Numbered from the stretch's first letter, positions 15,485 through 40,305 are shown. The stretch is 64,000 nucleotides of DNA from Patescibacteria group bacterium (GCA_018895015.1 JAHIOX010000015.1:11533-75532), one strand, 5' to 3'. Notes: generated by a model not told the origin, from the sequence alone. Program-made: numbers and translations.

Positions 15485-16696
15485 TTATTTAAGTGTTTTA
15501 TCAATCTTCTCCGCGATCTTTATCATATCTTTTTCTTTCATTCCCAATGTAGTTACTGCCGGCGTTCCAATGCGAATGCCTGACGGGCCTGCCGGCCTGC
15601 GCGTATCAAACGGAATCATATTTTTATTCACGATAATTCCCGCTCTTTCCAGTTTATCGCTCGCCTCTTTTCCGCTTATTCCGCGCGACCATGTATCAAC
15701 CAAAAATAAATGCGTGTCAGTTCCGCCGGAAACAATTCTCCACCCGCGTTTTTTTAATTCGTTTGCCAAAACTTGCGCGTTTTTCACTACTTGGTTAGCG
15801 TATATTTTAAAACTTGGCGACATCGCTTCTTTAAGGCAAACGGCAATAGCGGCGATTTGATTTATGTGCGGCCCGCCCTGCAATCCCGGAAAAACCGCCC
15901 GGTCAATTAGGACATCCAGTGTCCACTTGGACACTGGATGTCCAAGTGGTTTAATTTTGCGAGAAAAAATCATTGCTCCACGAGGACCGCGAAGAATTTT
16001 GTGCGTGGTGGTCATTACGACATCCGCGTACGGGAATGGAGATGGATGCTCTCCGCCGGCCACAAGGCCGGCAATATGCGACATATCAACCATCAAATAA
16101 GCGCCGGCCGCGTCGGCTATTTTTCTAAATTTTCTAAAATCAATTTTACGAGAATAGGCGGTAGCGCCGACAACAACCATCGCAGGTTTTTCTTTTTTAG
16201 CTATTTTAAAAATTTCTTCATAATCAAGCCTTTCGGTTTTTTTACTGACTCCGTAAGGAACTTGTTCCCAAAATTTTCCTGTCATGGAAACTTTCTGGCC
16301 ATGAGTCAAATGCCCGCCCATCTCAAGCGACATACCCATAATCTTACTGCCGATTGGAACAAGCGCCGAATAAATCGCCAGATTTGCCGGCGAGCCGGAA
16401 TACGGCTGGACATTAACATGCCACCTCGACTTCGCTCTGTGCAAGCATTTTTTATTACAAAGCTTAAACAGTTTCAACGCGCGATTTTTGCAAAGCTCTT
16501 CTATTTCATCAACTATTTCATTTCCGCCATAATATCTTTTGCCAGGATATCCCTCCGCGTATTTATTAGTAAAAACCGAGCCGAGCGCGCGCAAAACATC
16601 CCCGGAAACATAATTCTCCGAAGCAATCAAATTAACGGCCTTTTTCTGCCGCTTTTCTTCAAGCTTAATTAATCGCTCTATTTCAGAATCTGTCAT
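15485..16696 (-). CDS. glyA: Serine hydroxymethyltransferase
   Basis: SHMT motifs (HLTHGQ, VVMTTTHKILRGPRGAMIF, pyridoxal-phosphate lysine region). Contains the type B palindrome, encoding KPLGHPVSKWTLDV. Confidence 0.9.
   Translation of the reverse strand: MTDSEIERLIKLEEKRQKKAVNLIASENYVSGDVLRALGSVFTNKYAEGYPGKRYYGGNEIVDEIEELCKNRALKLFKLCNKKCLHRAKSRWHVNVQPYSGSPANLAIYSALVPIGSKIMGMSLEMGGHLTHGQKVSMTGKFWEQVPYGVSKKTERLDYEEIFKIAKKEKPAMVVVGATAYSRKIDFRKFRKIADAAGAYLMVDMSHIAGLVAGGEHPSPFPYADVVMTTTHKILRGPRGAMIFSRKIKPLGHPVSKWTLDVLIDRAVFPGLQGGPHINQIAAIAVCLKEAMSPSFKIYANQVVKNAQVLANELKKRGWRIVSGGTDTHLFLVDTWSRGISGKEASDKLERAGIIVNKNMIPFDTRRPAGPSGIRIGTPAVTTLGMKEKDMIKIAEKIDKTLK
15908..15949. repeat. In-frame intragenic palindromic element, type B
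   Basis: ggacatccagtgtcca ct tggacactggatgtcc aagtgg. Perfect 16-bp arms. Core differs from type A by paired a>c and t>g changes. Confidence 0.8.
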
Positions 16697-16735
16697 TCTT
16701 TAATCTTAACGGCTTAAAATATTTTTTCAACCAAA

Positions 16736-17878
16736 TTACTTTGGCCCGAGAAATTCCGCTCCAATATCATCGCGATGGACATGATGCGAATAACGCCGCA
16801 TGCCCATAAGCATGCCGAGCCCGGCGTAGACAACAAGCATATGCGTTCCGCCGTAACTCATGAAAGACAGATTGACGCCGGTGATCGGCATCAAGCCGAT
16901 ATTCATTCCGACGTTAACTATAAAATGCGCCATTATTAATATCGCCAATCCGATGCCGAATAAGACTTCAAAATTACTTTCGCCCATAAAAGCGTTTCTT
17001 AAAATTCTCCAAACAACTATCCCGTAAAATAAAAAAATAAAAAAGACGCCAACAAGCCCCCACTCTTCGGCAAAAGAAGCAAAAATAAAATCAGTCTCAT
17101 GTTCAGGCAAAAAACCCAGCCTGCTTTGGCTGCCGTAACCGATCCCCTTGCCGAAAATTTGACCGGAACCCACCGCGATCATTGACTGAAGCGCGTTGTA
17201 TCCTGCCCCACGCGCATCCTTTAATGGATTAAAAAATGTAACGACTCGCGCCTTCTGATATGGCTCAAGCACAAAAAACCAAGAGACGCTGAATAAAATC
17301 GCGACTAAAATAAAAACGAGCAAAAGATGTTTTTTGCTGACGCCGGAAACCATTATCATGCCAAGCCAAATAATAGAAATAATCAAAGCCGAGCCAAAAT
17401 CCGGCTGCAAAAAACACAAAAAGGCTGGGATGGCGACATAAATGCCGGAAATAATTATATGGCGGATATGAGCAATTTCTATATGGCGCCGCGAAAAATA
17501 TTTTGCCAAAACCAGAATGACAACAAGCTTTATCGGGTCTATCGGCTCTATTGAAAAAAAATATAAATCAAACCAACTGGATGCCCCGCGCACCGCTTTC
17601 CCAAAAATCAAAAGAGACGCGAGAACAAAAACGGAAGCAAAAAAAAGCAAAAGCAAAATTTCGCCCTTGCGTAAAAACCGCCAGTCAATAAAGCTAAAAA
17701 TAAAAAAGATGCCGAAACTGACAACAACCCAAATAATCTGTCGGCTAAAAAAATAATCTCCGCCAGCCAGCGGATTCCCGGCTCCTAAAGCGCGCATTGT
17801 AATCAAGCCGGAAAAAACAATAGGCAAAGTAGCAAAAAAAAGGATCCAGTCTATCTTTAAATTCCTTGCAATCTTCAT
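16736..17878 (-). CDS. ftsW: SEDS-family peptidoglycan glycosyltransferase FtsW/RodA
   Basis: 10-TM SEDS topology with conserved C-terminal motifs (GYGSQS..., LPEHETDFIFA, GMNIGLMPITGVNLSFMSYGGTHML). Confidence 0.8.
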   Translation of the reverse strand: MKIARNLKIDWILFFATLPIVFSGLITMRALGAGNPLAGGDYFFSRQIIWVVVSFGIFFIFSFIDWRFLRKGEILLLLFFASVFVLASLLIFGKAVRGASSWFDLYFFSIEPIDPIKLVVILVLAKYFSRRHIEIAHIRHIIISGIYVAIPAFLCFLQPDFGSALIISIIWLGMIMVSGVSKKHLLLVFILVAILFSVSWFFVLEPYQKARVVTFFNPLKDARGAGYNALQSMIAVGSGQIFGKGIGYGSQSRLGFLPEHETDFIFASFAEEWGLVGVFFIFLFYGIVVWRILRNAFMGESNFEVLFGIGLAILIMAHFIVNVGMNIGLMPITGVNLSFMSYGGTHMLVVYAGLGMLMGMRRYSHHVHRDDIGAEFLGPK

Positions 17879-17892
17879 GCTTTTTTAAATTT

Positions 17893-18651
17893 TTAGATAC
17901 CGAATCCGGTTCTGAAAAATACATCGTTTGACAAAAGTTCCTCAACAAATGGCTGAGGCCAAGTAAATACCACGGACTTGGAACCTCCAGCGGCAACAAT
18001 GTCTATTCTGGAAGAACTTGCCCCCTTAACATTATTATCCTTGTCGTAAAGAACGGCTACGGCATAAATATCTTTTGCCGGCAAAGCGGATTTATTGTCT
18101 ATAACAATGTAAAGCCGCGGAGACGGATCATTAACAAACTCTTTTTTTGAAACCACGAGCTGCATTTTTTCTTTTTCAACAATTTCCCATTTAAAATCAT
18201 TTTTAAACTCAATAAAAGCGCGCTCCGGAACGCGATTGCCGGTGTCTATGTCAGTTTCAAAAATCGGGAAAGCCTCTCCAGAATTGATAAAAGTTTCTCC
18301 GTCTCTAACGGCAATCAACACATTATTTTTATCATAAAGCTTAAGCTGATAGCTGATGGAAGGAATTGCGAGGCGCAGATTCGGATTATCAACCAGCGCG
18401 ATAGCTTCGTATAAATTTTCATCTATTTTAAAAACATTTGCCCATGGGACAATTAAATTTTTTATATCGCCCTTGCATTGATTTTGGCATGGCCCGCCGC
18501 AATCAATCCCCTGTTCATTCTGATTTTGTTTATTATCAAAACAGGTTGGAGCGAATGCCCTGAACGCTAAAAATACTATCATTCCAAAAACAATGACTAA
18601 AAAAAGCGCCAGATATGTCAGTTGTCTTTTTATCGCCCATGGAATATTCAT
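17893..18651 (-). CDS. N-terminally membrane-anchored Cys-rich extracytoplasmic protein (hypothetical)
   Basis: TM helix (LALFLVIVFGMIVFLAF) followed by a CxxGPCQNQC cluster. No recognisable domain. Confidence 0.4.
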   Translation of the reverse strand: MNIPWAIKRQLTYLALFLVIVFGMIVFLAFRAFAPTCFDNKQNQNEQGIDCGGPCQNQCKGDIKNLIVPWANVFKIDENLYEAIALVDNPNLRLAIPSISYQLKLYDKNNVLIAVRDGETFINSGEAFPIFETDIDTGNRVPERAFIEFKNDFKWEIVEKEKMQLVVSKKEFVNDPSPRLYIVIDNKSALPAKDIYAVAVLYDKDNNVKGASSSRIDIVAAGGSKSVVFTWPQPFVEELLSNDVFFRTGFGI

Positions 18652-18687
18652 AACTACATAATACAGAATTTTAAGGAAAAAATAAAA

Positions 18688-18705
18688 CGCGGGAAAAACC
18701 CCGCG
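18688..18705 (-). terminator. Rho-independent terminator after the 5S rRNA
   Basis: cgcggg aaaaac cccgcg hairpin, with a T-run on the minus strand (complement of aaaataaaa at 18680-18687). Confidence 0.55.
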
Positions 18706-18721
18706 CTAAAATTGAATTTTT

Positions 18722-18830
18722 AAGACTGGCGGCTGGCTACTTTCCCCTTGCGAGTATCATCGCTACTACCACCTTTCACTTCCGTGTTCGGAATGGGAAC
18801 GGGTGGGACAATGGCGTCTAGCCACCAGAC
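18722..18830 (-). rRNA. rrf: 5S ribosomal RNA
   Basis: Reverse complement GTCTGGTGGCTAGACGCCATTGTCCCACCCGTTCCCATTCCGAACACGGAAGTGAAAGGTGGTAGTAGCGATGATACTCGCAAGGGGAAAGTAGCCAGCCGCCAGTC. Conserved CCGAACACGGAAG loop. Confidence 0.8.
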
Positions 18831-18869
18831 TAAAAAATTCAATTGTTATTTTTTACGTCATTTTCAGAA

Positions 18870-21958
<3,089 letters not shown>

Positions 21959-22191
21959 TTTCCTATTAGGAAATTAATAATTCTGAAATATAAACGTAAA
22001 AATACTTTAATTACCCATTATGTTTTCAAAGTTCTGGCATTTCTGTCTTTAAAAAATAAAAAATCCGCTTTTAGAAGCGGCTTAATCAAGCAAAAGTAGA
22101 ACAAATGCTACCCTTTTTTACGCTTCCAAAATATTCCTATTTTCTTTCTTATCATATCTTAATTTCATTATATATTCGCAAAACAAAAAGT

Positions 22192-22224
22192 CAACCCCCG
22201 CCTTTTAGTAAAAGGCGGGGGTTG
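22192..22224 (-). terminator. Strong rho-independent terminator (15-bp perfect stem) after the membrane protein gene, upstream of the 23S
   Basis: caacccccgcctttt agt aaaaggcgggggttg with flanking A/T runs on both sides. Probably bidirectional. Confidence 0.6.
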
Positions 22225-22260
22225 CTGACAATCTTTTATTTTACCCTTTAAAACAAAATA

Positions 22261-22947
22261 CTACTTTGATCCAAGATCTCTTTTTAATTTTTCAACATAC
22301 TGCGACGCCGCCTCTTTTCCGCCAAGCCCAAAAGCAAGACCGCCTGCAATCGCGAGCATCGCCACAAATCCCGTGAAAAGGGTTTGGGCAAAAATACCGG
22401 CAATCCCAAGCTGGTAAAGAGCCGCGAGAATCGCAAAAATCCAAATTGACCATTTGGTTATTCCTCCCAAAAGCTGGGTTGAAGGAACACCAGCCGCCTT
22501 AGCCGAACCGACAACAATACGATGCATGGCATTAGCAAGAAAAGCGGCAACAACCAAGATAAGAGCGGCAACAATAACATTAGGAAGATAAGCAAGAACA
22601 ACGTCTTTTAAAAACACATTGACCTGCTGGAGCCCCAGAACATCTATTGAAGCGATTAAAAAAGCGATAATTAAAAACCATCGCACCAAACCGCCAATAA
22701 AAGCCCCTGAATCAAGTCTAAATCCGGCTCTTGCCAAAGGTTCTTCTATCCCTAAAGACTGAAGCGCTTTATCAACTTTAAAGGAACGGATTATTCTGGA
22801 GACTAATTTATCTAAAGTCACAGCAATCACCCAACCTATAATGAAGATTATTATCGCTATAATGAATTTTGGAATAAACATTATTGCTCCTCCCCAAAGT
22901 TGCTGAAAAGAATAAAACAGCACATCACTCCAAGTTTGTAACAACAT
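22261..22947 (-). CDS. Membrane protein with repeated conserved-TM-helix segments (MscS-like N-terminal type; hypothetical)
   Basis: Several TM helices with repeated ...IAGIF... / ...IIAFLIASIDVLGLQ... segments. Confidence 0.35.
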   Translation of the reverse strand: MLLQTWSDVLFYSFQQLWGGAIMFIPKFIIAIIIFIIGWVIAVTLDKLVSRIIRSFKVDKALQSLGIEEPLARAGFRLDSGAFIGGLVRWFLIIAFLIASIDVLGLQQVNVFLKDVVLAYLPNVIVAALILVVAAFLANAMHRIVVGSAKAAGVPSTQLLGGITKWSIWIFAILAALYQLGIAGIFAQTLFTGFVAMLAIAGGLAFGLGGKEAASQYVEKLKRDLGSK

Positions 22948-23074
22948 AAGCTTTATTATTTAAACTATTAATAAAATTACTACGCGTAATAATTTTAAAT
23001 CGACCTGTTTTATACATAATTCAATTATACCAACAATTAAAAAAATTTTAATGGCTTATGTGGATAACCTTGCT

Positions 23075-23146
23075 TGGGCGGTGCAGGAATCGGACCTGCG
23101 CTCTCTGCAATGTGAATGCAGCATTTTACCATTAAACTAACCGCCC
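23075..23146 (-). tRNA. tRNA-Val (anticodon CAC)
   Basis: Reverse complement GGGCGGTTAGTTTAATGGTAAAATGCTGCATTCACATTGCAGAGAGCGCAGGTCCGATTCCTGCACCGCCCA. Anticodon loop TTCACAT. Confidence 0.75.
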
Positions 23147-23773
23147 TTACACGTTTAGCTTATTAATTAGCTTCTCATGCGGATAATCCAGCACGTCGCG
23201 CACAAATTTATCATACATTCCAAACCTGTACAAAAATTCCTTAGTGCTTAAAACAGCGAAAACAAGCTCTTTGCCGATTTCCGCTTCAATGTTTTTTAAC
23301 ACTTTTTGCAAAACCGCCTTTTTTATGGCGTCGCCAACCAAAAACAGGTCTGTTCTGCTGTCTTCGGATTGTATAAAAATTCCTGAAAGAATCGCGAGTT
23401 TCATCCTGCCAACCGAGCTTAACATTTTTATTAATCTCTCATTATCAATAGGCACAGTATCAACAACAAGGCTTTTAAGCGAGCGAAAAAATGGAAAAGA
23501 CATGTTTAATCTTAAGCCGTGAATTTTTTTCCTTATATTTTTTATTTTGCCGTTCTTGAGTTTAATAATGTCATCAATTTTCTCCTCTTTCTGCGTTACA
23601 AAACCCACGCTTTTTAAAAGCAAAATTTCCCGCCGCGCGGATGGCAAAGCCACCCTTGTGCGGCGGGAAATTTCCTTAATATCAAAAAACATATCAGGGT
23701 TTAAGAAAAAAAGCCGTATGATTTTAACTCTCGAGGCAGAGCCGAAGAGCCTTTCTAAAACCCTTTCTTTCAT
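23147..23773 (-). CDS. Winged-helix (ArsR-like HTH) domain protein, hypothetical regulator
   Basis: N-terminal wHTH-like segment (VKIIRLFFLNPDMFFDIKEISRRTRVALPSARREILLLKSVGFV). The stop abuts the tRNA-Val 5' end. Confidence 0.4.
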   Translation of the reverse strand: MKERVLERLFGSASRVKIIRLFFLNPDMFFDIKEISRRTRVALPSARREILLLKSVGFVTQKEEKIDDIIKLKNGKIKNIRKKIHGLRLNMSFPFFRSLKSLVVDTVPIDNERLIKMLSSVGRMKLAILSGIFIQSEDSRTDLFLVGDAIKKAVLQKVLKNIEAEIGKELVFAVLSTKEFLYRFGMYDKFVRDVLDYPHEKLINKLNV

Positions 23774-23793
23774 ATTATTTTATGATATCACAA

Positions 23794-24189: not shown

Positions 24190-24195
24190 AATTTT

Positions 24196-27760: not shown

Positions 27761-30163
27761 TTAGACGCTATATCTTTGATGTAATTCAGCTTCTATTTCC
27801 GCCCGCGGGCGGCCGTATTTAAGAGACGAAAGTTTTGCGATTTCCTCGCCATCAGCAATCTCTCCTTTTTGAAACGGGCTTGTCTGCATACTGAACGGCC
27901 TTGATGTCTGGCCGTCAATCAAAACCTTGAGACAAGCGTTATAATTATCAATATTTATAAGGTCGTAAGAATTAAAAACCGGCTCAAATTGCTTTTGCAA
28001 AACTTCAGCGTCTTCAGCGCCAACTCTAAAAGCTACGATTGAGCCGACATTGCCGAAAATCGCCTTTTTAATATTTTCCTCAAGCTGGCCGATAAATTGA
28101 TGCGCGATTGCCAGATTTAATTTATACTTGCGCGCCTCGGATAAAATGGTGGCAATGGAATCGGTAGTGACATTATGAAATTCATCAATATACAAATAGA
28201 AATCCCTGCGTTTTTCTTCCGGCATGTCTACGCGCGAAAGCGACGCCATCAAAATTTTGCCCACAATAATCAAGCCAAGCAAATTAGCGTTCAAGTCGCC
28301 CAATCTGCCCTTTGAAAGATTGATTAAAAGTATTTTGCCCTCGTCCATCGCCTGCCTGAAATTAAACGCGGATTTTTCCTGAATTATTATCGGGCGCATG
28401 ATTTCGTTTGACAAGAAATTGTCAAATTTGCTGGTAATATACGGGACCATATTTTGCAAAGAAGCTTCCCCGCCGGCTTTTTCCGCTACATCCCTCCAGA
28501 AATTTTTTACAAGAGGATTGGCGCAAAGAGACAATTTCCGGTCGCGGAAATTTTTGTCGCTCAAAACCCTTTCCACGTCCAACAAGCTGTTCCCGGAAGA
28601 AACATCGTCCATGACCAGCATCACCGAATTTCTAAAATACTGTTCAAACATCGGTCCGCCGGCAGTCTTCATGTCAAAAAGCTTGTTAAAAATTCCGAGT
28701 AATTCATTAACAATAAACGTTTTTTGCTCCGGATGGCTTTGGTCATACTCCAGCATATTCAATCCCATCGGCCGTTCAATATTGCCCGGGTCAAAATAAA
28801 TTACATCTTCCGCTCTGGATGGCGGAATTCGCGATAAAATATCCTGAATGTCAGAGCCGTGCGGGTCAATAAAACAAATTCCTTTGCCCGCCTCAATGTC
28901 CTGGACAATCATATTTTTAAGAAGCACGGATTTGCCGGTGCCTGTCTGTCCGATAGCGTAAATGTGCCTTCGGCGGTCGTCGTCTTTTATATAAACATCG
29001 GAAATTTCTCCGCGATAAATATTTTTGCCTAGCAAAAGCCCTGATTCCGGCAAACTTAATGGCGGAGGCGCTTCTTTTGTTTTTAAATATTTAAGCTTAG
29101 GCGCCGCAGATGAAGCTATGCCAAGCGGAAAATGAAAAATAGTGGCAAGTTCCGCCGCGTTTAACTGTATCGCGTTTTTCGCGTCCGGTAATCTGAAAGA
29201 AAATTTATAAAAAAGACTTTTTAATTTTCTTCCGCGCGGAACAATAAATTCAAATCCGTTTCCTTGCGCTTCTTTAAATTGCAAAAACGCGCTTTTTAAT
29301 TCCGCTAAAATAGAATTCGCCCTTTCTTTGCTCGTTGAAGAAGCAAGAAGGCGGATATTGGCTTGCATCATTTGGCGGGACGCTTTAGACTCAAGCAGTT
29401 TTACCAGCTCTTCGTCAACCGATTTTTGGCCTGATTCATTTTTTCTCGCGTCCTTGCCTGAACCGAATATAAAATTCCACAATTCGCCAAGCATGCTCTT
29501 CCAAAAACTTTCATATCCGCGCAGCGCATCGGACAATGATTCGCCCTTGCGAACCTCTGAAACAACCATTTTCGCCTTTTTAATGATCTCTTCATTTGAC
29601 GGCGAAAGTATTATTTGCAAAGCGGCGCCTTCTCCGTCTTTCTGTAATTTTGAAAAAGTATTTATAGCCACCTGCAAAGGGTCGGACTCAAACCTGTCAT
29701 ACGTTCTAATCGGCAGAACATCCTCTCGGTTTAACCTGGCAAAAGATCCCGCCGAAAAACCGTCCGGTTTAAAAATATTATAATCGTCTTTTTTAACAGA
29801 AACGCCGGCAAAAGGGAAAAGCCCGTTAACAAGCTTTTCAAAAAGCTGATTTTGGCTTTTTTCCACGGCCGCGTAAAAAACCAATTCCTGCCCCTTGGCA
29901 GGCAACCCGATTTCAAGCGCGTAATAACTTTCTACCGCGGCCATTCCGCTGTAAAACTGCTCCATAACCGATATCAATTCTTTAAAGCTTTTATCGCCAT
30001 CTTTCGGCTTTTCATGCGGCAAAGTTATTTCATAAAGCACAAAATTAAGAGAACGAAGAACCTTGCCACGCTCGTTTTTACGCCAGAAAAAAACAACCAA
30101 CAGCGTTCCGCCGATAAAAATTACGGCGGAAAAAAGATAAAAATAGAAAAAAAATTCAAACAT
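27761..30163 (-). CDS. VirD4/TraG/TraD-like coupling-protein-family P-loop ATPase with N-terminal TM anchor and large N-terminal domain
   Basis: N-terminal TM (FYFYLFSAVIFIGGTLLVVFFW). Walker A GQTGTGKSV. Walker B YLYIDEFHNV followed by RKYKLNLAIAHQFIGQL. Paralogous to the CDS at 1518-3227 (same motif order, about 40% local identity by eye). Confidence 0.5.
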   Translation of the reverse strand: MFEFFFYFYLFSAVIFIGGTLLVVFFWRKNERGKVLRSLNFVLYEITLPHEKPKDGDKSFKELISVMEQFYSGMAAVESYYALEIGLPAKGQELVFYAAVEKSQNQLFEKLVNGLFPFAGVSVKKDDYNIFKPDGFSAGSFARLNREDVLPIRTYDRFESDPLQVAINTFSKLQKDGEGAALQIILSPSNEEIIKKAKMVVSEVRKGESLSDALRGYESFWKSMLGELWNFIFGSGKDARKNESGQKSVDEELVKLLESKASRQMMQANIRLLASSTSKERANSILAELKSAFLQFKEAQGNGFEFIVPRGRKLKSLFYKFSFRLPDAKNAIQLNAAELATIFHFPLGIASSAAPKLKYLKTKEAPPPLSLPESGLLLGKNIYRGEISDVYIKDDDRRRHIYAIGQTGTGKSVLLKNMIVQDIEAGKGICFIDPHGSDIQDILSRIPPSRAEDVIYFDPGNIERPMGLNMLEYDQSHPEQKTFIVNELLGIFNKLFDMKTAGGPMFEQYFRNSVMLVMDDVSSGNSLLDVERVLSDKNFRDRKLSLCANPLVKNFWRDVAEKAGGEASLQNMVPYITSKFDNFLSNEIMRPIIIQEKSAFNFRQAMDEGKILLINLSKGRLGDLNANLLGLIIVGKILMASLSRVDMPEEKRRDFYLYIDEFHNVTTDSIATILSEARKYKLNLAIAHQFIGQLEENIKKAIFGNVGSIVAFRVGAEDAEVLQKQFEPVFNSYDLINIDNYNACLKVLIDGQTSRPFSMQTSPFQKGEIADGEEIAKLSSLKYGRPRAEIEAELHQRYSV

Positions 30164-32270: not shown

Positions 32271-32334
32271 TAAAGTGGCATTACGCTACATTCGCATTGT
32301 AGAGGCGGGAGTTCGATTCTCCCTAGGTCCACCA
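32261..32334 (+). tRNA. tRNA-Ala (anticodon CGC), CCA encoded; overlaps the efp stop codon
   Basis: GGGCCTATAGTAAAGTGGCATTACGCTACATTCGCATTGTAGAGGCGGGAGTTCGATTCTCCCTAGGTCCACCA. G3:U70 Ala identity pair present. Anticodon loop TTCGCAT. Confidence 0.8.
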
Positions 32335-32344
32335 GAATAAATTT

Positions 32345-32575
32345 ATGTGTTTAGCCATTCCGGGAAAAATAATTTCAATAAAAAAGCAAAACGCCACTGT
32401 TGATTTTAGAGGCATTAAAAAAGAGGTGGACATTTCTTTGGTCAGCGCCAAGCCGGGCGACTATGTTGTCGTTCACACCGGCTTCGCGGTCGGCAAATTG
32501 GATAAAAAATCCGCCAATGAATCCTACAAATACTTTGATGAATATATCAAAACAAAACACGGAAAAAATACTTGA
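32345..32575 (+). CDS. hypC: Hydrogenase maturation factor HypC
   Basis: N-terminal MCLAIPGKI signature of HypC/HupF. Confidence 0.8.
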   Translation: MCLAIPGKIISIKKQNATVDFRGIKKEVDISLVSAKPGDYVVVHTGFAVGKLDKKSANESYKYFDEYIKTKHGKNT

Positions 32576-33587
32576 TGAAATAAAAAAACTGGCGAAATCA
32601 ATAGGCCGCGAAACGCGGCTGATGGGACTTTGCGGAACTCATTCCCAAACCATCGCGCAATACGGCCTCAAAAACTTATTGCCGCGCAATATCAAACTGG
32701 TTGCCGGACCCGGATGCCCGGTTTGCGTCACCGCGCGCGAAGATATTGACGCGGTTATTGGATTGGCTTTAGCTGGAATGCCTTTGGCTGTTTACGGAGA
32801 CACATTAGCTGTTCCCGGCTCAACAGAAAGTCTTGAAAACGCCAGGCAAAAAGGCGCGGATATTAAAATAATTTATTCCATCAAAGAGGCGCTGAAAGAA
32901 CAAAAAATAAAACCCGACTTGGTTTTTTTCGGAGTCGGATTTGAAACAACGGCACCCATGACAGCTTGGGCTATAAAACAAGGATTGCGCGTTTACAGCG
33001 CCCATAAATTTTTCCCGCCGGCAATGGCCGCGCTTTTAAAAAACAAAAAAATTAAAATTGACGGACTTATAGACCCAGGGCATGTGAGCGCGATTATCGG
33101 CGAATCTCCATATAAAAAATTTGAAATTCCGCAAGTAATTACCGGATTTGAACCGGAAGATGTCTTAATGGCGGTTTTGATGCTGCTAAATCAAATCGCT
33201 GAAGGCAAACGCGATCTTGAAAACGAATACGGCCGCGTGGTAAAAAAAAATGGAAACGAGAAAGCGGTAAATTTAATCAATGAAGTTTTTGAGCAATGCG
33301 ACGCCGAATGGCGCGGCATAGGCCTGATAAAAAATTCCGGAATGAAAATAAGAAAAAAATATTCCGCTTGCGACGCCAAAATAAAATATCGCCGGACAAT
33401 CGCAGAAATTTTATCGCGGACAAAAACCAAAAAAACTGCCTGCAGATGCGGAGAAATATTGCAAGGGTTAATTGAACCGAACCAATGCCCTTTATTTAAA
33501 AAAATCTGCGCCCCGGAAAATCCTTTCGGCGCATGCATGGTTTCAATTGAAGGAACCTGTAATATAGAATATAAATATGCGCGCTAA
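32538..33587 (+). CDS. hypD: Hydrogenase maturation factor HypD
   Basis: GLCGTHSQ and GPGCPVCVT motifs plus C-terminal CxxC-rich region. Start chosen at ATG 32538 (MNISKQNTEKILDEIKK), aligning with the HypD N-terminus. The ORF-track start at 32400 is an upstream extension. Confidence 0.8.
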   Translation: MNISKQNTEKILDEIKKLAKSIGRETRLMGLCGTHSQTIAQYGLKNLLPRNIKLVAGPGCPVCVTAREDIDAVIGLALAGMPLAVYGDTLAVPGSTESLENARQKGADIKIIYSIKEALKEQKIKPDLVFFGVGFETTAPMTAWAIKQGLRVYSAHKFFPPAMAALLKNKKIKIDGLIDPGHVSAIIGESPYKKFEIPQVITGFEPEDVLMAVLMLLNQIAEGKRDLENEYGRVVKKNGNEKAVNLINEVFEQCDAEWRGIGLIKNSGMKIRKKYSACDAKIKYRRTIAEILSRTKTKKTACRCGEILQGLIEPNQCPLFKKICAPENPFGACMVSIEGTCNIEYKYAR

Positions 33588-34596
33588 AAAACAAAATAAC
33601 GATACGATAGAACTGGACCACGGCGGAGGAGGATACAAGTCGTGGGAATTGATTGAGGAAATCCGCGGGAATATGGCTGACAGCCGCCGACTGGCGAAAA
33701 AATGGCAAAATTGCGAAGACGACGCGGCAGTTTATAATTTAGGAAAACAAAAATTGGTTTTTACCACAGACGCTTTTATAATTGACCCGATATTTTTCCC
33801 GAGTGGCGACATAGGAAAAATAGCCGCTTGCGGCACAATAAACGATTTGGCGGTAATGGGCGCGAAACCGATAGGCCTTTCTTTAAGCATTGTGATTGAG
33901 GAAGGTTTTTCAAAAAAAGATTTGCTGAAAATCATCCGTTCAATAAATAATGTTTCCAAAGAAAGCGGCGTCCCTATTGTCACCGGCGACACCAAAGTAA
34001 CTGAGAAAGGGAAACTGGACAAAATTGAAATCACCACCGCCGGCGTCGGTCTAGCCGGGAAAATAATTGAAAATAAAGGAATTGAGACTGGCGATTTAAT
34101 AATCGCTTCCGGAGATCTTGGCGAACATGGCATAGCTCTGCTTTCGCAAAGATTTAATTGCAAAAGCAAAATAAAAAGCGATTGCAAACCTTTGAACAAA
34201 GAGATTGGAAGCGTCGCGAGCTATCTGCATTCTTGCAAAGACCCGACGCGCGGAGGATTGGCGGCGAATTTATATGAAATGGCGGAAAAATCCGGAGCGC
34301 GTATTATTTTGGAAGAAAAAAAACTTCCATACAAAAAAGAGGCTTTTGCCCTAGCGGAACTTTTGGGGATTGATATCTTTTCACTGCCCTCCGAGGGTAG
34401 ATTTATTGCTGCTGTTTCAGAAGGAGACGCGGAAAAAACTTTAAAAATACTTAAAAAAAATAATCCTGAAGCAAAAATCATAGGCAGAGCTGAAAAAGCA
34501 AGCAATAAAAACAGCGGCGTCTTCTTAAAAACAAGTATCGGCGGAATAAGGGAAATTGAAATGCCGAGAGGAAAATTAATTCCCAGAATTTGCTGA
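33577..34596 (+). CDS. hypE: Hydrogenase maturation factor HypE (carbamoyl dehydratase)
   Basis: AIR-synthase-related fold motifs and the HypE C-terminal ...PRIC ending with the catalytic Cys. Confidence 0.85.
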   Translation: MRAKKQNNDTIELDHGGGGYKSWELIEEIRGNMADSRRLAKKWQNCEDDAAVYNLGKQKLVFTTDAFIIDPIFFPSGDIGKIAACGTINDLAVMGAKPIGLSLSIVIEEGFSKKDLLKIIRSINNVSKESGVPIVTGDTKVTEKGKLDKIEITTAGVGLAGKIIENKGIETGDLIIASGDLGEHGIALLSQRFNCKSKIKSDCKPLNKEIGSVASYLHSCKDPTRGGLAANLYEMAEKSGARIILEEKKLPYKKEAFALAELLGIDIFSLPSEGRFIAAVSEGDAEKTLKILKKNNPEAKIIGRAEKASNKNSGVFLKTSIGGIREIEMPRGKLIPRIC

Positions 34597-35757
34597 CAAA
34601 TAATAAAAAACCTGACCAAAAGAAATTCCGGCGTCTCCGCGAGGAATTTTTTTATTGGCAACAGCTCCTTTTGATTCAAAATATTCGGAAATAATTTTAT
34701 TGTTCGCCATTCCCCCGCCAAAATAAACCGGCGCTTCCATATTTTTGGCTAAAAAATTATCCTCAACTATTTTATAAAGCCCTTTCGCCAGATAACTTTG
34801 GGCCGCGGCCGCCTTTTTATTTTTCTGGCGCGTGTTTTTCGCAAGATATTTAAAAAGCGGCGCTAAGCGCAAAATAAAAATTCCATTTTCATTTTTTATT
34901 TCCGGCTTAATATCCTTATAAACTACTGATGAATTTTTTTCCAATAAATCAATCGGCTCGTGCTTATAACCCCTTCTGTTTCCGCAAAAACCCAATAAAA
35001 TTGAAGCCGCGTCCAATACTCTTGCCGAGCTTGATGTTTCCGCGCAGTTAAAATTTTGCATGAGCTGATTGCGCAAAATCTCAAATTGTTTTTTTGAATA
35101 ATATTTTTTTAAATATTTATAAACCGATTCTTTGTCTAAAAATCCGCTTAAAATAACCATCAGCATTCTGGCTGGCTCCTCCACAGCCAATTCTCCGCCA
35201 AGCATAATTTGATTCTCCAAATGCCCTATCCTTTCAACGGCTACAGCGCTACGCGCGGAAAACCGGTTTTTAATTTTAATTCTGAAAATTTCTCCGCCCC
35301 ATATTTTTCCATCCAAACCATAACCTGTACCATCCATAGCTATTCCGCAAAAATTATCTGTTTTTCCAAAATTCGCCTCTCCATACGCGGAAAAAATATG
35401 CGCTATGTGATGCTGAACCTGAAAAAATTTCGCTCCGAATTTTCGCGCGAGCTCGTTTCCCATGGCTGTAGTTTTAAAAAGCGGATGTAAATCTGATATG
35501 ACTATATCCGGCTTTATATCATTTTGCTTTAAATATTCCAAAACTGATTTTTTGAAAAACCGGAAATTAGCTTCGTCTAAAAGATCTCCGAAATCATCTG
35601 ACAAAAATATTTTTCCTTTTCTGCAAACGCAAAAAACGCCGCAAGATTCGGCGCCCAATGCTATGACCGTTTTTTTCTTTTGAAAAGGCGTATTAAACCT
35701 TATCACATTTTTATGCTCTATCTTGATACAAAAGGAATGAGTCCCAAGAATCGGCAC
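34576..35757 (-). CDS. hypF: HypF-like carbamoyltransferase, C-terminal Kae1/YrdC-like portion only (truncated relative to canonical HypF)
   Basis: VQHHIAHI and GGVANN-type Kae1-like motifs. No acylphosphatase or zinc-finger N-terminal domains in a 393-aa ORF. Start uncertain (overlaps rpsR). Confidence 0.5.
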   Translation of the reverse strand: MPILGTHSFCIKIEHKNVIRFNTPFQKKKTVIALGAESCGVFCVCRKGKIFLSDDFGDLLDEANFRFFKKSVLEYLKQNDIKPDIVISDLHPLFKTTAMGNELARKFGAKFFQVQHHIAHIFSAYGEANFGKTDNFCGIAMDGTGYGLDGKIWGGEIFRIKIKNRFSARSAVAVERIGHLENQIMLGGELAVEEPARMLMVILSGFLDKESVYKYLKKYYSKKQFEILRNQLMQNFNCAETSSSARVLDAASILLGFCGNRRGYKHEPIDLLEKNSSVVYKDIKPEIKNENGIFILRLAPLFKYLAKNTRQKNKKAAAAQSYLAKGLYKIVEDNFLAKNMEAPVYFGGGMANNKIISEYFESKGAVANKKIPRGDAGISFGQVFYYLSANSGN

Positions 35758-35918
35758 CGTTTTACCGCGCGCGCCAATTTTCTCTGGTGTTTGGCGCAGA
35801 CATTTGTTTCTTCTCTTGGCAAAATTTTTGACTGAAAATTCAAAAATTTTTTAAGAAGCTCCGACTCTTTGTAATCAACCTCTTTTATATTGTTTGTGCA
35901 AAAATAACACTGTCGCAT
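35718..35918 (-). CDS. rpsR: 30S ribosomal protein S18
   Basis: S18 family (CYFCTNNIKEVDYK...RAVKRCRFLGLIP). Confidence 0.85.
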   Translation of the reverse strand: MRQCYFCTNNIKEVDYKESELLKKFLNFQSKILPREETNVCAKHQRKLARAVKRCRFLGLIPFVSR

Positions 35919-35931
35919 GGTTTTTATAAAA

Positions 35932-36369
35932 TTAAAAAGGTATTTCCTCCGGGTTAATATCTTCTTCCGGATACTCTATTGTTTCCAATTCTTCCGGCGC
36001 GCTTTCCGGCTTTTGCTTTTGAGAAACGCCCTGGCTCTCCGCTCTTCGCGGCCCAAACTGAATTCTCTCCGCCACTATTTCCGTCCTATTCTTTTTTGAG
36101 CCGTCCTGCGCATCCCAATTTCTTGTTTGTATCCTGCCTTCCACAAAAACAAGGCTTCCTTTTTTTAAATATTGCGACGCTAAGTCAGCCAATTTCCCGA
36201 ATACCACTATATTGTGGAATTGGGCATCTTGCTGATTTTGGCCCTGCTGATTTTTCCAAATTCTGTTAGTCGCCACCCCAAAAGAAACTACCGGCACGCC
36301 CGACGGCAACGACCTTGATTCCGGGTCTCTTGTCAAATTTCCTATAATAAACGCTTTATTTAAATTCAT
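35932..36369 (-). CDS. ssb: Single-stranded DNA-binding protein
   Basis: OB-fold SSB with acidic C-terminal tail ...PEEIPF. Confidence 0.9.
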   Translation of the reverse strand: MNLNKAFIIGNLTRDPESRSLPSGVPVVSFGVATNRIWKNQQGQNQQDAQFHNIVVFGKLADLASQYLKKGSLVFVEGRIQTRNWDAQDGSKKNRTEIVAERIQFGPRRAESQGVSQKQKPESAPEELETIEYPEEDINPEEIPF

Positions 36370-36381
36370 AATCGTAAAAAT

Positions 36382-36825
36382 TTATACTCCTAATAATTCT
36401 TCTAATTTTTTATCAATCTCTTCACTTTTTATTCCCGTCTTCTCATCCATTCCTTCTGTTTTTTTCACTCCGGCAATTTTCTTTCTGCCAATCAGTTTTT
36501 TATCGCGCAATTTTACAACGCCTGTTTCTTTTGCCGGTTTAATAACCAAAAAGCGAAGAACGTTGTCATTTTTTTCAAAAGACGCTGAAATATCATTTAT
36601 AATTTCTGAATTTGCCATAAATTTAACCCAGCCAAAATGCGCGCTGTCAAAACTTTTTATTGAATACGCTAATTTTTGCGCTTTCGGGCGGCCTTCCATT
36701 AAAATAAGGCCATGCTTATCTTCTATGAATTTTCTCAGATTGGAAACATTATCATCCAGCTTGTCTTCCGGGATAAGCGGCGTCAGCAAATAACCTATTT
36801 CATATGTATTTTGATTTTTTTCCAT
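36382..36825 (-). CDS. rpsF: 30S ribosomal protein S6
   Basis: S6 family N-terminal domain (YEIGYLLTP...), with a Lys/Glu-rich C-terminal extension. Confidence 0.8.
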   Translation of the reverse strand: MEKNQNTYEIGYLLTPLIPEDKLDDNVSNLRKFIEDKHGLILMEGRPKAQKLAYSIKSFDSAHFGWVKFMANSEIINDISASFEKNDNVLRFLVIKPAKETGVVKLRDKKLIGRKKIAGVKKTEGMDEKTGIKSEEIDKKLEELLGV

Positions 36826-36886
36826 AAAACCATACTAACAAATAAATATAGTTTAGGCAATCCCATGTGACTGGACAAGGCAAAAA

Positions 36887-36895
36887 TGATATAAT
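36887..36895 (+). promoter_or_regulatory. Extended -10 promoter element TGaTATAAT immediately upstream of pgm (leaderless or near-leaderless start)
   Basis: TGATATAAT ends 6 nt before ATG 36902, with an upstream TGACTG -35-like hexamer at the right spacing. Confidence 0.4.
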
Positions 36896-36901
36896 TAAAC
36901 A

Positions 36902-38050
36902 ATGAAAATCAAGCAATCCATATTTAAAGAATACGATATCAGGGGGAGGTATCCGAGCGAAATAAACAAAGACGCCGCTTATAAAATAGGCAGGGCTTTG
37001 GCCATTTTTTTAAAACTTAAACACAAAAATAAGATTATTGTTGCCAGAGATGGCCGCCCGAGCTCTCCGGCGCTCTCTAAAGCTTTTGTTTCCGGAATAA
37101 TTGATTCCGGCGCCAGCGCGATAGACATAGGCATAGTTACAACCCCAACGCTTTATTTCGCTGTCCCATTTTTAAAAGCCGACGGAGGCGCGATGGTCAC
37201 CGCTTCGCACAACCCGATAAGCGATAACGGGATAAAGCTTGTCAAAAAAGAGTCGGAGCCGCTCAACGAAAAATCTTTATTAAAAATTTATGAAATCGCG
37301 AACAATCTTCCGGATAGACTCCCGGGCAAACTGGGAGAATATAAAAAAATGGATGTTGAAAAAGATTATCTTGAAGCAATGCTCAGCGATTACAAAATTA
37401 ACAAGCCTGGCTTTTCTTATTCTTTTGATTACGACGGCGACCGGTTAATGCTCAAAAATAAAAATGGTAAAGAAATAAGAGGCGACATAGCCGGAGGCAT
37501 TATGGCCGACACAGTCGCGAACGCCGGTGATACCATTGTTTACGACGTAAGATGTTCGCACGGCGTCGTAAAGTATTTTGAAAACAAAGGAATCATTGCC
37601 GCTCCAAGCCGAACTGGGCACTCCAATATCAAAAAATTAATGAGAGAAAAAAACGCAATCTTTGGCATGGAAATAACCGGCCATTACTATTTTAAAAAAT
37701 TCCATTATTGCGAATCGCCATTGTACGGAATAAAAAAAATAGCTGAAAAAATAAGCGAGAGCGGAAAAAACATTGATGAATTGTCAAAGCCCTTTATGAA
37801 ATACTGCCATTCAGGAATAATAAACACCTCTGCCAAGGGCGGGCGAATCGAAAAAATTATAGAAAAATTGAAAGAAGAATATAAAAATGGAGCCCAGAAT
37901 GAACTGGACGGCTTAACAGTAGAATTTTCAAACTGGTGGTTCAACATCCAGCCGTCTCAAACAGAACCAATTATACGGCTAGTGATAGAAACAAAAACAC
38001 CGCAACTTTTAGCGGAAAAGAAAAAAGAATTGTTGAAACTTATATCTTAA
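36902..38050 (+). CDS. Phosphoglucomutase/phosphomannomutase family protein (short form)
   Basis: Active-site TASHNP, metal-binding DGDGDR-like FDYDGDR, GEYK... motifs. Confidence 0.8.
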   Translation: MKIKQSIFKEYDIRGRYPSEINKDAAYKIGRALAIFLKLKHKNKIIVARDGRPSSPALSKAFVSGIIDSGASAIDIGIVTTPTLYFAVPFLKADGGAMVTASHNPISDNGIKLVKKESEPLNEKSLLKIYEIANNLPDRLPGKLGEYKKMDVEKDYLEAMLSDYKINKPGFSYSFDYDGDRLMLKNKNGKEIRGDIAGGIMADTVANAGDTIVYDVRCSHGVVKYFENKGIIAAPSRTGHSNIKKLMREKNAIFGMEITGHYYFKKFHYCESPLYGIKKIAEKISESGKNIDELSKPFMKYCHSGIINTSAKGGRIEKIIEKLKEEYKNGAQNELDGLTVEFSNWWFNIQPSQTEPIIRLVIETKTPQLLAEKKKELLKLIS

Positions 38051-38829
38051 ATTCTAAATAAGTTTAATGCGTTGGCGGTTGTGACTTTTGCCGCTTCTTC
38101 TTCTGAAATGCCTTTTATCTCCGCGATTTTTTTGGCAACCTCAATAACATACGACGGCTCGTTGCGCTGGCCCCTGTAAGTAATCGGCGCAACGAACGGC
38201 GCGTCGGTTTCAATCATAATTTTATCCAACGGCGCGTTTCTGATTATTTCATCATAGTCTCGAGCAAAAGTGATAACGCCAGTGAAAGAAATTAAAAATC
38301 CCAGTTCAAAATATTTTTCCGCCTGCTCCAGACTGCCGGAGAAAAAATGAATATCGCCTCGCAGTTTTTGGCATTTATGCAAATTAAGAATTTCCAAAAC
38401 ATCTTTGTGCGCATCGCGGCAATGAATCATTAATGGCTTATCCAATTCTATCGCCAATTCAATCTGTTGTTTTAAAATATCTTTTTGTCTTGCTAAATAA
38501 TCTTTTTCTCTGCGAAAAATATCAATTCCGCATTCCCCTATTGCCATCACTTTTGGATGTTGAGTCAATTTGCGCAACTTGGAAATCCAGTTTCCACTTG
38601 GAAACTGGATTTCCAAGTTCTCTGCATCCGTAGGATGCAGACCCACTGAAGCAAACATCCCTTCGTATTTTCCCGCGATTTCCACGGCCTTTTTAGAGCT
38701 TTCAAAATCCACACCAACAATAATAGTCCAAATTCCATGAGCCAACATCCGTTTGATGACTTCTTCCCTGTCTTTATCAAAATCCGCAAAATTCAAATGC
38801 GAATGAATGTCAAAATATTTTGGAATCAT
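38047..38829 (-). CDS. tatD: TatD-family metal-dependent DNase/hydrolase
   Basis: TatD motifs (FDIHSHL, AIGECGID, HCRDA, ETDAPF). Contains the type A palindrome, encoding EIQFPSGNWISK. Confidence 0.85.
   Translation of the reverse strand: MIPKYFDIHSHLNFADFDKDREEVIKRMLAHGIWTIIVGVDFESSKKAVEIAGKYEGMFASVGLHPTDAENLEIQFPSGNWISKLRKLTQHPKVMAIGECGIDIFRREKDYLARQKDILKQQIELAIELDKPLMIHCRDAHKDVLEILNLHKCQKLRGDIHFFSGSLEQAEKYFELGFLISFTGVITFARDYDEIIRNAPLDKIMIETDAPFVAPITYRGQRNEPSYVIEVAKKIAEIKGISEEEAAKVTTANALNLFRI
38578..38617. repeat. In-frame intragenic palindromic element, type A
   Basis: cttggaaatccagtttcca ct tggaaactggatttccaag. Perfect 19-bp arms. Confidence 0.8.
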
Positions 38830-38832
38830 AAT

Positions 38833-40305
38833 CTATTTTCTCAAAAACAACGGCTCCGGCATTTTATTCGCTTCAATGGCGCGAAGAATTTTTTCTGAAG
38901 TTTCCGGCAAAAATGGTCCCAGCATAATCGCGACTTCGAAAAGCCCGCTGACTAATTCCAGTAAAATTTTTTTGGCCGCCTTCTCGTCTATTTTTATCAG
39001 CTTGAACGGCTCTGTTTCCTGAATTTTTTTATCCAAATCGGAAATTTTTTGCCAAATAAAATCCATTGCTTTATTCAATTCAAAATCATCCATAAACTTT
39101 TTGTAGTCTTCCGGCACTTGGACATCCAGTGTCCAAGTGGACACTGGATGTCCGCTATCAAAATATTGTTCGCTCATCTTCATAATTCTTGCCGTTAAAT
39201 TTCCCAATCCGTTGGCAAGATTGGCGTTATACGCTTCTTTGAATTTTTCTTCCGTTATGTCGCCGTCTTCAAATATTGTTATCTCTCTCAACAAATAATA
39301 ACGGACCGCGTCTGCCCCGTATCCTTCAATCAAATCAAACGGGTTTATAACATTGCCCAAAGTTTTAGACATTTTTCTGCCGCCGGAAAGCGCAAATCCG
39401 TGCACTAAAATTTCTTTAGGCAAAGGCAAGCCGGCGGACAAAAGCATCGCCGGCCATACAATCGCGTGGAAACGTGAAATGTCTTTGCCTATGACATGCA
39501 AATCCGCCGGCCAAAATTTCGCAAAATTGATATCGTCAGTGCTTCCATATCCAAGAGCGGAAATATAATTCGCGAGCGCGTCGCACCAAACATACATAAT
39601 CTGGCTTGAATCATTTGGAACGGGCACGCCCCAATCCAACTTTTCAACCGGCCTTGAAAAACTTATATCTTCCAACCCGTCGCCAAGCATCACCAGCGCC
39701 TCGTTTTTTCTTGAAACAGGAATAATTTTAAATTCGTCTGATTTTATTTTATTTTTTATTTCTTCCGCGTATTTTGAAAGCCTGAAAAAATAATTTTTTT
39801 CTTCAATCAATTCCGGCTCCTTGTCGTGAATCGGGCATTTCCCGTCAACTAATTCTTTTTCAGTTATATACGCCTCGCATCCGATGCAATAATATCCTTT
39901 GTATTTTGCCTTATAAATATCGCCGGAATCATCAAGTTTTTTCCAGAGCGACTGCACGCCAGGCCAATGCCGTTTTTTATCAGTAGTCCGTATAAAATCG
40001 TCAATTGAAATGCTCAATGCCACTGCAAGCTTTTTGTACATTTCAACATTTTCGTCAACAAAATCTTTTACATTCTTGCCGCGCGCTTCGGCCATTTTCA
40101 ATATTTTAATCCCGTGCTCATCCGCACCTGATAAAAAATAAACTTCTTTTCCCAAAAAACGCTGGTATCGGGCAATAACATCCGCCTGCGTTTTCTCCAG
40201 CGCGTGGCCAAAATGAGGAACGTCACTGGCATAATCAATGGCAGTTGTAATATAAAATTTTTCCATTTTAACCGGCAGCCCTATGTTTTTTATGGTCAAT
40301 ATCAT
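38833..40305 (-). CDS. metG: Methionyl-tRNA synthetase (short, single-chain form)
   Basis: Class I HIGH (PHFGHALE) and KMSKS (KMSKT) motifs, zinc knuckle CIGCE...CPIH. Contains the type B palindrome, encoding GHPVSTWTLDVQV. Confidence 0.9.
   Translation of the reverse strand: MILTIKNIGLPVKMEKFYITTAIDYASDVPHFGHALEKTQADVIARYQRFLGKEVYFLSGADEHGIKILKMAEARGKNVKDFVDENVEMYKKLAVALSISIDDFIRTTDKKRHWPGVQSLWKKLDDSGDIYKAKYKGYYCIGCEAYITEKELVDGKCPIHDKEPELIEEKNYFFRLSKYAEEIKNKIKSDEFKIIPVSRKNEALVMLGDGLEDISFSRPVEKLDWGVPVPNDSSQIMYVWCDALANYISALGYGSTDDINFAKFWPADLHVIGKDISRFHAIVWPAMLLSAGLPLPKEILVHGFALSGGRKMSKTLGNVINPFDLIEGYGADAVRYYLLREITIFEDGDITEEKFKEAYNANLANGLGNLTARIMKMSEQYFDSGHPVSTWTLDVQVPEDYKKFMDDFELNKAMDFIWQKISDLDKKIQETEPFKLIKIDEKAAKKILLELVSGLFEVAIMLGPFLPETSEKILRAIEANKMPEPLFLRK
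39115..39153. repeat. In-frame intragenic palindromic element, type B
   Basis: cacttggacatccagtgtcc aagt ggacactggatgtccgc. Perfect 15-bp arms ggacatccagtgtcc / ggacactggatgtcc. Confidence 0.8.

Follow-up and report, generated by a model that had tools for sequence, protein, structure and literature searches.

A stretch of 64,000 nucleotides from a Patescibacteria group bacterium (GCA_018895015.1, JAHIOX010000015.1:11533-75532) contains six short palindromic elements, each of which consists of a hairpin followed by its own reverse complement and is translated as part of a protein gene. This whole 64-kb stretch is called the window below; L-numbers denote other loci and genomes compared with it, and P-numbers denote homologous proteins. 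By structural and genetic definition the elements are REPINs, or doublets of REPs (repetitive extragenic palindromic sequences) that form hairpins, with departures in tag, spacing, location and the presence of units inside the transposase gene. They are probably REPIN-like elements whose hairpins have been kept by selection for recognition by a Y1 (HUH) transposase of the kind known as REP-associated tyrosine transposase (RAYT). What is new here is that the elements are translated, lie mostly in genes, carry no GTAG tag and have in-frame copies within their own transposase gene.

A search of the window for the 15-mer core GGAAATCCAGTTTCC, with up to two mismatches, gave 13 matches against 0.25 expected from shuffles, and 12 of the 13 pair up into six inverted pairs. 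Arm complementarity is 100% in all six pairs, the arms measure 16-23 nt, and the centre between them measures 2-8 nt. An earlier note on this DNA had described the copies as perfectly symmetric, with arms varying from 15 to 23 bp; the copies are real, their symmetry is perfect and arm length does vary, within the slightly narrower range given here. Four pairs have the type A core GGAAATCCAGTTTCC (GGAAA..TTTCC) and two have the type B core GGACATCCAGTGTCC (GGACA..TGTCC). Within every 15-mer arm there is an inner hairpin, GGAMA-TCCAG-TKTCC, which makes the element a nested palindrome in all six copies; the 15-mer with its flanks reads CACTTGGAMA-TCCAG-TKTCCAAGTG, and the doublet is this hairpin and then its reverse complement. 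The change between types A and B occurs at 15-mer positions 4 and 12, which lie in one and the same arm and are paired with each other in the inner hairpin. Since the second arm repeats this change, the two types differ at four positions altogether, and not, as the note had proposed, at two mirrored positions in opposite arms. Both type B copies do carry GGACA..TGTCC, but those at 15910-15948 and 39115-39153 are exact reverse complements of each other, that is, one 39-nt sequence in opposite orientation, and so they represent a single A/B difference instead of two. Because these two copies are identical, they would be accounted for if both had been copied from a single type B master that was already symmetric.

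The basic unit of 25 nt can be written CACTTGGAMAY-NNN-RTKTCCAAGTG, or as the consensus CACTTGGA-M-A-Y NNN R-T-K-TCCAAGTG, with a stem of 9-11 bp and a loop of 3-5 nt. As single-stranded DNA, one unit has a folding energy of -8.8 kcal/mol, and the doublets reach their minimum free energy in the long hairpin (-17 to -24 kcal/mol, z -6 to -12). All six copies are in frame, free of stop codons and inside long open reading frames (ORFs) of the minus strand, which encode SecF-like, FolD, SHMT, TatD-like, MetG-like and IleS proteins. Their translations, in different frames, are LGNPVSKHLETGFPS, YWKSSFHLETGFPS, LGHPVSKWTLDVL, NLEIQFPSGNWISKL, GHPVSTWTLDVQV and LGNPVSAHLETGFPS, so that the feature common to the copies is the DNA and not the peptide. 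A conserved peptide motif was accordingly rejected, since the copies are translated in all three frames and in both orientations. A composite query of the element-encoded peptides gave no match in the protein database at E <= 10, and Rfam holds no family that matches any copy.

The SecF-like ORF (8133-9128, minus strand), which matches Pfam SecD_SecF_C, holds at 8753-8800 a nearly full-length type A doublet, made of two 25-nt units of which the second is 2 nt short, and encoding ALGNPVSKHLETGFPSE. Its arms of 23 nt are 100% complementary and 2 nt apart, its inner hairpin spans 8753-8777, and its minimum free energy as single-stranded DNA is -24.2 kcal/mol (z -11.6). The copy in the FolD ORF (14622-15470, minus) is a type A doublet of the compact form at 14754-14789, with the spacer AAAT and 17-nt arms that are 100% complementary, and encodes YWKSSFHLETGFPS. 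In the SHMT ORF (glyA; 15485-16696, minus), a type B doublet with 16-nt arms lies at 15910-15943, or to 15949 with the inner hairpin (15923-15949, 11-bp stem), and encodes PLGHPVSKWTLDVL; by the named homologues of this SHMT, the organism belongs to Patescibacteria/Parcubacteria. The TatD-like ORF (38047-38829, minus), annotated TatD_DNase in L183, has a type A doublet at 38576-38619 with 21-nt arms (100% complementary; minimum free energy -21.2 kcal/mol, z -9.4) that encodes NLEIQFPSGNWISKL. The second type B doublet, with arms of 16 nt, encodes GHPVSTWTLDVQV at 39115-39153 in the MetG-like ORF (38833-40305, minus), which matches tRNA-synt_1g. The IleS ORF (48299-51193, minus) carries a type A doublet at 49143-49192, which has an 8-nt centre and 21-nt arms with 100% complementarity, encodes TLGNPVSAHLETGFPSV and is identical in four other assemblies; its minimum free energy is -23.3 kcal/mol (z -10.5).

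Beyond the window, the strict two-arm pattern with the loop fixed as in the window had no match in 185,579 species genomes. In metagenomes it recovered three new copies (L032, L034 and L059) and two duplicates of window copies (L031 and L048), and copies of the window lineage are found also in L032 and L059. The other 29 metagenome matches to the strict pattern were high-GC hairpins unrelated to the element, and a one-arm 17-mer gave 25 single matches in viral contigs, none with a partner arm, which were attributed to chance. A free pattern, in which the loop and the variable stem positions were left open, matched at least 114 loci, about 50 of them classed as Patescibacteria, a few of these by the element architecture. 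Matches from Kiritimatiellae, Prevotella, Akkermansia and Bacteroidetes were set aside as unrelated, since they are tandem arrays whose arm mismatch (3.3 against 4.5 expected) is roughly random. Among the matches listed, the element architecture occurs in Giovannoni-, Moran-, Sacchari-, Vogel-, Nealson-, Falkow- and Niyogibacteria and in Paceibacterota, and the family is widespread in Patescibacteria. The full-length doublet consists of two units placed back to back with the centre AAGTGCACTT; in compact doublets some 6 nt of the centre, or part of an end, are missing, and single 25-nt units are present outside doublets as well.

The wider set of copies allows the symmetric and asymmetric differences to be counted, as the earlier note had proposed. 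Among the matches listed there are 51 doublets, of which 40 are perfectly mirrored at the 7 free positions of each arm, in 14 arm types, and the mean arm-to-arm mismatch is 0.37 against 3.5 for independent arms. Their orientation is inverted in 40 cases and direct in 3. Eleven of the 51 are asymmetric, with 19 mismatched positions, and three of these 11 are direct and not inverted; asymmetric substitutions, which the note had taken as a sign of ordinary decay of an inherited palindrome, are thus seen in part. Together with the window lineage and L062 the set comprises 61 doublets, in which, relative to the commonest type, 159 positions have changed identically in both arms and 19 have arms that disagree. 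Sixteen perfectly mirrored arm types occur among the 61, and their minimum spanning tree requires at least 20 mirrored substitution events; as read off the spanning-tree list, 7 of the 10 single-step links between arm types are transitions. Among the matches listed, positions 4 and 12 pair as A-T or C-G in 100 of 102 arms, and positions 6 and 10 in 96 of 102. Intermediates between types A and B exist in both kinds: in L101 the long palindrome is intact and the inner pairs are broken, and L145 shows the reverse. T.G intermediate states are found in the window family and in L079, and one genome, JAHIER01, has the T-A, T.G and C-G states of a single stem pair. The window family is itself in the T.G state, one mirrored transition away from the GGACAC-CCA-GTGTCC type of L076 and L089. 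Symmetry regenerated and not merely inherited, as the note had it, does not follow from the window alone, but the wider data, with 16 mirrored arm types among 61 doublets, show that the symmetry is actively kept.

A transposase gene that is flanked by units of this family lies close to the window. L179 (GCA_018896515.1) agrees with the window at 10857 of 10864 overlapping bases (99.9%), and contains at 3747-4388 an ORF of 213 aa, which corresponds to window-equivalent 69469-70110, or 5.5 kb past the window end. This ORF matches Pfam Y1_Tnp with 25.7 bits (cut-off 23) and belongs to the IS200-like Y1 transposases, not to the DDE transposases. A type A unit upstream of the gene ends 13 nt before the ATG, and downstream the 15-nt core of another begins 16 nt past the stop codon; two further units lie within the gene, in frame, and encode RKLGNPVSKLEK and HSLGNPVSKLRL. 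In L096, which belongs to Paceibacterota, an ORF of 221 aa (Y1_Tnp, 33 bits) has a single unit directly on either side, with inverted loops, and a third unit inside the ORF, again in frame. The arrangement of Y1 gene and units recurs in L182, and L096 and L182 are unrelated genomes. The Y1 protein family has about 2900 members, and those with a named source are all from Patescibacteria; an alignment of 31 homologues shows no variation in the HUH motif or in the tyrosine. An AlphaFold model of P0166, which is 75% identical to the protein of the window genome, has a pLDDT of 80.8 and finds as its best match in the PDB 4ER8 (E-value 3.6e-4, probability 1.0), the REP-associated tyrosine transposase of E. 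coli in complex with a REP hairpin, with the IS608 and ISDra2 transposases next. Some homologues are named RayT at JGI, which is a general COG name.

The units inside the transposase gene are informative in their own right. Most Y1 homologues, in more than 100 Patescibacteria, have an in-frame hairpin at two shared positions, read as the heptapeptide L-G-X-x-X'-S-K. At the first of these sites, X and X' can be encoded by reverse-complement codons in 100 of 113 sequences, while shuffles gave a mean of 49 and a maximum of 63, and the pairs observed include H/M, S/T, S/A, N/V, G/A, R/T and G/T. This codon covariation indicates that a DNA hairpin has been kept at a fixed site through many compensatory changes, and the sequence of the transposase protein at site 1 follows the hairpin in its DNA. 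In the P0166 model the heptapeptide segment falls in a low-confidence loop (residues 52-65, pLDDT <50).

What the data show directly is how the elements are built, that their stems covary, where they lie in frame, in which genomes they occur and that a transposase gene is flanked by them. We infer that this transposase moves the elements and that its recognition of the hairpin is what selection works on. Units would be recognised as hairpins in single-stranded DNA and spread by the cognate IS200-like Y1 (HUH) tyrosine transposase; a doublet in single-stranded form could also fold into one hairpin of 16-23 bp. As this Patescibacteria genome has almost no intergenic space, copies land in genes, and the survivors there would be those that leave the frame intact and lie in loops tolerant of insertion, adding 13-18 residues to the protein. 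Further spread would be open only to copies still able to form the hairpin, and symmetry would persist for that reason; the differences between subfamilies, both A versus B and in the loops, would likewise be compensatory because only hairpin-forming copies spread. Such differences would arise stepwise, via T.G or mismatch intermediates, and mutations private to one copy would be asymmetric.

REPINs and RAYT became known first from Pseudomonas fluorescens SBW25 and E. coli; 93% of the published REPINs are inverted, and compensatory changes across the REPIN hairpin were reported to be common (Bertels and Rainey, 2011, PMC3116915). The elements described here resemble them in having a short unit that forms a hairpin, doublets that are for the most part inverted (the 40 inverted and 3 direct noted above) and give a longer hairpin on folding, single units and compensatory changes, and also in that a Y1/HUH transposase gene is flanked by the same units and that the model of P0166, 75% identical to the protein of the window genome, matches 4ER8 best. 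They differ in that their units abut or overlap, with 2-12 nt between cores, whereas REPIN units are tens of bases apart, in the lack of a GTAG tag, in the two in-frame units within their own transposase gene and in their host, which belongs to the Patescibacteria or candidate phyla radiation (CPR). REPs inside genes have been reported in several species, as a minority (Di Nocera et al., 2013, PMC3733652). The GTAG and CGTC super-families of REPs and the REPtrons of the same study share with the present family units or dimers within ORFs that encode extra residues, and tyrosine transposase genes flanked by repeats, but there the intragenic copies are a minority and the end is tagged, whereas here the copies are mostly intragenic and have a conserved foot, CACTT/AAGTG.

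Three other known systems invite comparison. Rickettsia palindromic elements (RPEs) are about 100-150 bp long and are inserted in frame in housekeeping genes as extra peptide segments. The likeness to them extends to in-frame, translated palindromes in unrelated housekeeping genes, to a bacterium with a small genome and to the existence of several families, but the elements here are 25-50 bp long, have no CGTC end and have a cognate Y1 transposase gene. RPEs end in CGTC, and repeats with a CGTC tag are not known to have a transposase of their own (PMC3733652). Miniature inverted-repeat transposable elements (MITEs) have terminal inverted repeats with a target-site duplication and are moved by a DDE transposase, whereas the gene associated with the present elements is of the Y1 type. 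Outside the palindrome neither a duplication nor a conserved target is visible here, although exact insertion boundaries are uncertain because the flanks of the empty alleles differ. In insertion sequences of the IS200/IS605 family, a Y1 HUH transposase recognises hairpins near the ends on single-stranded DNA, and palindrome-associated transposable elements (PATEs) are their miniature derivatives. The four units in the same orientation at the Y1 gene of the window genome are like such left-end and right-end hairpins; however, the gene was not seen moving with its hairpins as a multi-copy insertion sequence, and the copies scattered elsewhere consist of nothing but a hairpin or an inverted doublet.

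Comparisons of the same sites between genomes show that relatives lack individual copies. The FolD of L063 lacks 18 aa at the site of the folD copy, and the SecF of L063 has no hairpin-encoded sequence at the corresponding site and is 8 aa shorter there. In L178, which has 93% DNA identity to the window and the closest SHMT, the SHMT type B copy is absent and the folD type A copy is present; the arms of the latter are identical, and of its four changes three fall in the spacer and the fourth affects the base next to the left arm. The SHMT copy is found in L062 (68% DNA identity overall) at the same site and with the same ends, and the 39-nt left flank leading into the element is identical. The loops of these two copies, TCCAG/CTGGA in the window and TTTAA/TTAAA in L062, differ by three substitutions and their three mirror images, with no unpaired change. 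A single unit whose outer stem differs, ATGTC GGAAAC TCG GTTTCC GACAT, lies at 461-485 in the PKD-domain ORF (280-1512, minus), where it encodes VGNRVSD and has an 11-bp stem and a 3-nt loop; a possible decayed partner arm, matching at 11 of 15 positions, is seen at 424-438. The hairpin of this gene, GTCGGAAAC-NNN-GTTTCCGAC, is present at the same place in L130 (4490-4516) at 49% amino-acid identity, and its loop is flipped between the two (CGA versus TCG). In strains that were reached via the neighbouring ribosomal genes, the copies are identical and show no polymorphism.

Several results depart from the published REPINs or weigh against a REPIN-like system that is driven by its transposase. 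Published REPINs are extragenic, and the copies here are intragenic at the background rate, since long open frames contain 50 of 61 doublets (82%) and 85% of randomly placed positions, and are translated. The outward flanks read AAGT(G/T) and are random beyond, with neither GTAG nor CGTC present. The transposase scores 16.9 bits with NCBIfam REP_Tyr_transpos, far under its cut-off of 80, and PDB sequence searches with the transposase and its profile returned nothing, the fold search alone giving a match. The four units at the Y1 gene of the window genome are in the same orientation and not inverted as in classical REPtrons. They are also of type A, and no type B enzyme was found; P0158, the only homologue with LGHPVSK, was rejected for this role because its sample is another one and the units on its flanks have a different variant of the loop. 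The SHMT copy, absent from L178, is the only presence/absence difference at close range, and no transposition event was observed. Around that copy the window and L178 diverge over about 200 nt (the 15700-15990 region) and are about 95% identical elsewhere in the gene, which suggests that the copy arrived or left by homologous recombination of the surrounding tract and not by fresh insertion; it seems to have passed between lineages in this way. The free-pattern scan demanded that eight fixed positions be intact in each arm and therefore under-represents decayed copies. Finally, arm-to-arm symmetry holds even where the inner hairpin is imperfect, as with the T.G / C.A of the window, and this pattern fits selection on the long hairpin and copying from arm to arm equally well.

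Such copying is the foremost alternative, although we consider it a good deal less likely than selection on hairpins. One arm would be copied from the other, so that symmetry is restored mechanically while the elements are still REP-like, and the route could be template switching in a near-palindrome, gene conversion from arm to arm, or the production of each doublet from one master unit by inverted duplication. Correction of quasi-palindromes by template switching is known in E. coli. All nine doublets of the window lineage are T.G / C.A inside and yet perfect between arms, arm types one step apart whose inner pair is broken keep a perfect mirror symmetry (L079), and full-length doublets vary symmetrically at their centres (AAGTGCACTT, AAGTATACTT, AAGTTAACTT), all of which would be expected from it, as would the three mirrored pairs that alone distinguish the SHMT copies of the window and L062. 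The units at the Y1 gene are single and the dispersed ones are mostly doublets with variable centres and ends, as if they had come from imprecise fold-back. On the other hand, 19 mismatched positions in the 11 asymmetric doublets have stayed uncorrected, both kinds of A/B intermediate are present (L101 and L145), and no templating enzyme or intermediate was seen. Single units that have no partner arm to be copied from keep their hairpin too, in the 100 of 113 sequences at site 1, so selection on hairpins operates in any case. Of the two explanations that the earlier note had offered for the symmetry, hairpin selection is the better supported, by the Y1 gene flanked by units and by the intermediates, and templating is the less likely. 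A related and rather doubtful possibility is that the units around and inside the Y1 gene are the masters, and that transposase and substrate form a self-referential unit which mechanically rewrites copies at fixed sites; the mirrored loop changes in SHMT and the flipped loop in the PKD gene fit a rewriting of copies.

Another explanation, which we hold to be improbable, is that the palindromes serve the host as structures in mRNA or DNA, such as RNase III or pausing sites, signals for DNA uptake or recombination, or sites for a dimeric protein, and that the transposase is secondary. The old copies at fixed sites would suit such a function, namely the PKD-gene hairpin shared at 49% amino-acid identity, the two in-frame hairpins of the Y1 gene conserved in more than 100 homologues, and the folD copy whose arms are unchanged at 7% genome divergence. 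However, the host genes are unrelated to one another and all three frames are used, doublets occupy ORFs at no more than the background rate, individual copies are absent from close relatives, the 16 arm types are unlike one fixed recognition site, and the Rfam search was negative. Although short-read contigs often start or end inside the element and some library linkers are palindromic, an origin from adapter or linker palindromes or from sequencing or assembly chimeras is ruled out by the occurrence of identical copies at the same sites in independent NCBI, JGI, ENA and Logan assemblies, and is at odds with the fact that every copy is in frame in an intact gene, that sequence variants occur at the same sites in relatives, and that the family is confined to a single lineage, in which it is accompanied by a transposase gene of its own.

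Textbooks treat REPs and REPINs as extragenic repeats found in proteobacteria. If they are mobilised as proposed, the REPIN logic of a hairpin unit, inverted doublets and a cognate Y1 gene would be at work also in the reduced genomes of Patescibacteria, inside essential genes, and would account for many of the short odd insertions in CPR proteins and for contig breaks in assemblies. The transposase residues that covary as reverse-complement codons would offer a natural experiment in which nucleic-acid structure overrides protein sequence, and the family provides a large natural set of hairpin variants from which it could be learned what such transposases recognise. The choice between selection and arm-to-arm templating also becomes testable from genome data. 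With regard to assemblies, short-read contigs were often seen to break inside the palindrome (position 1 of L185 and L186; the ends of L031 and L032), and such elements probably fragment assembled CPR genomes.

Some further hairpins bear on the extent of the family. In the SHMT loop of relatives (alignment columns 320-360) there are other hairpin-encoded inserts, among them LGGETAKRRLHRL and LLSSITD..GNDSRK, and in the SHMT loop of L063 (10690-10760) the sequence GGCGGT AAA ACCGCC has a GG-N4-N3-N4'-CC architecture with a different inner stem. The super-family thus seems to be wider than the GGAMA pattern that was scanned. The window contains three perfect matches to the GG-N4-N3-N4'-CC architecture, against 0.4 in shuffles. 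Two possible diverged single units, both of uncertain membership, are TTTGGCTAT cgc ATAGCCAAA at 526-546, which has this architecture with another inner stem, and GGTTAA CGC TTAACC at 8342-8356 in the SecF-like ORF. A perfectly mirrored doublet family of a different kind, GGACAACTCGTGTCC GATC GGACACGAGTTGTCC, is present in L106, L142, L148 and L168, four contigs of one high-GC uncultured bacterium outside the Patescibacteria. The 29 high-GC metagenome loci mentioned above (L028-L061 minus L031, L032, L034, L048 and L059) share a conserved hairpin, TTGGCAATCCAGTATCC..GGTTACTGGATCGCC, with conserved flanks, and this hairpin may be a structured RNA.

The remaining observations concern the window itself. 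A repeat of about 100 nt is present in two copies, at 51186-51285 and 52316-52417, which are one indel apart and have a G+C-rich imperfect palindrome inside; the copies cover the start codon and leader of two minus-strand genes, ileS and a DUF559-like gene. The ORFs at 1518-3227 and 27761-30163 resemble coupling proteins of type IV secretion (TrwB/TraG-like). A distance of 11 kb, occupied by protein genes, separates the 16S (5935-7454) and 23S (18880-21968) rRNA genes, and the 23S match of 3089 nt, compared with a model of 2925 nt, suggests an insertion.

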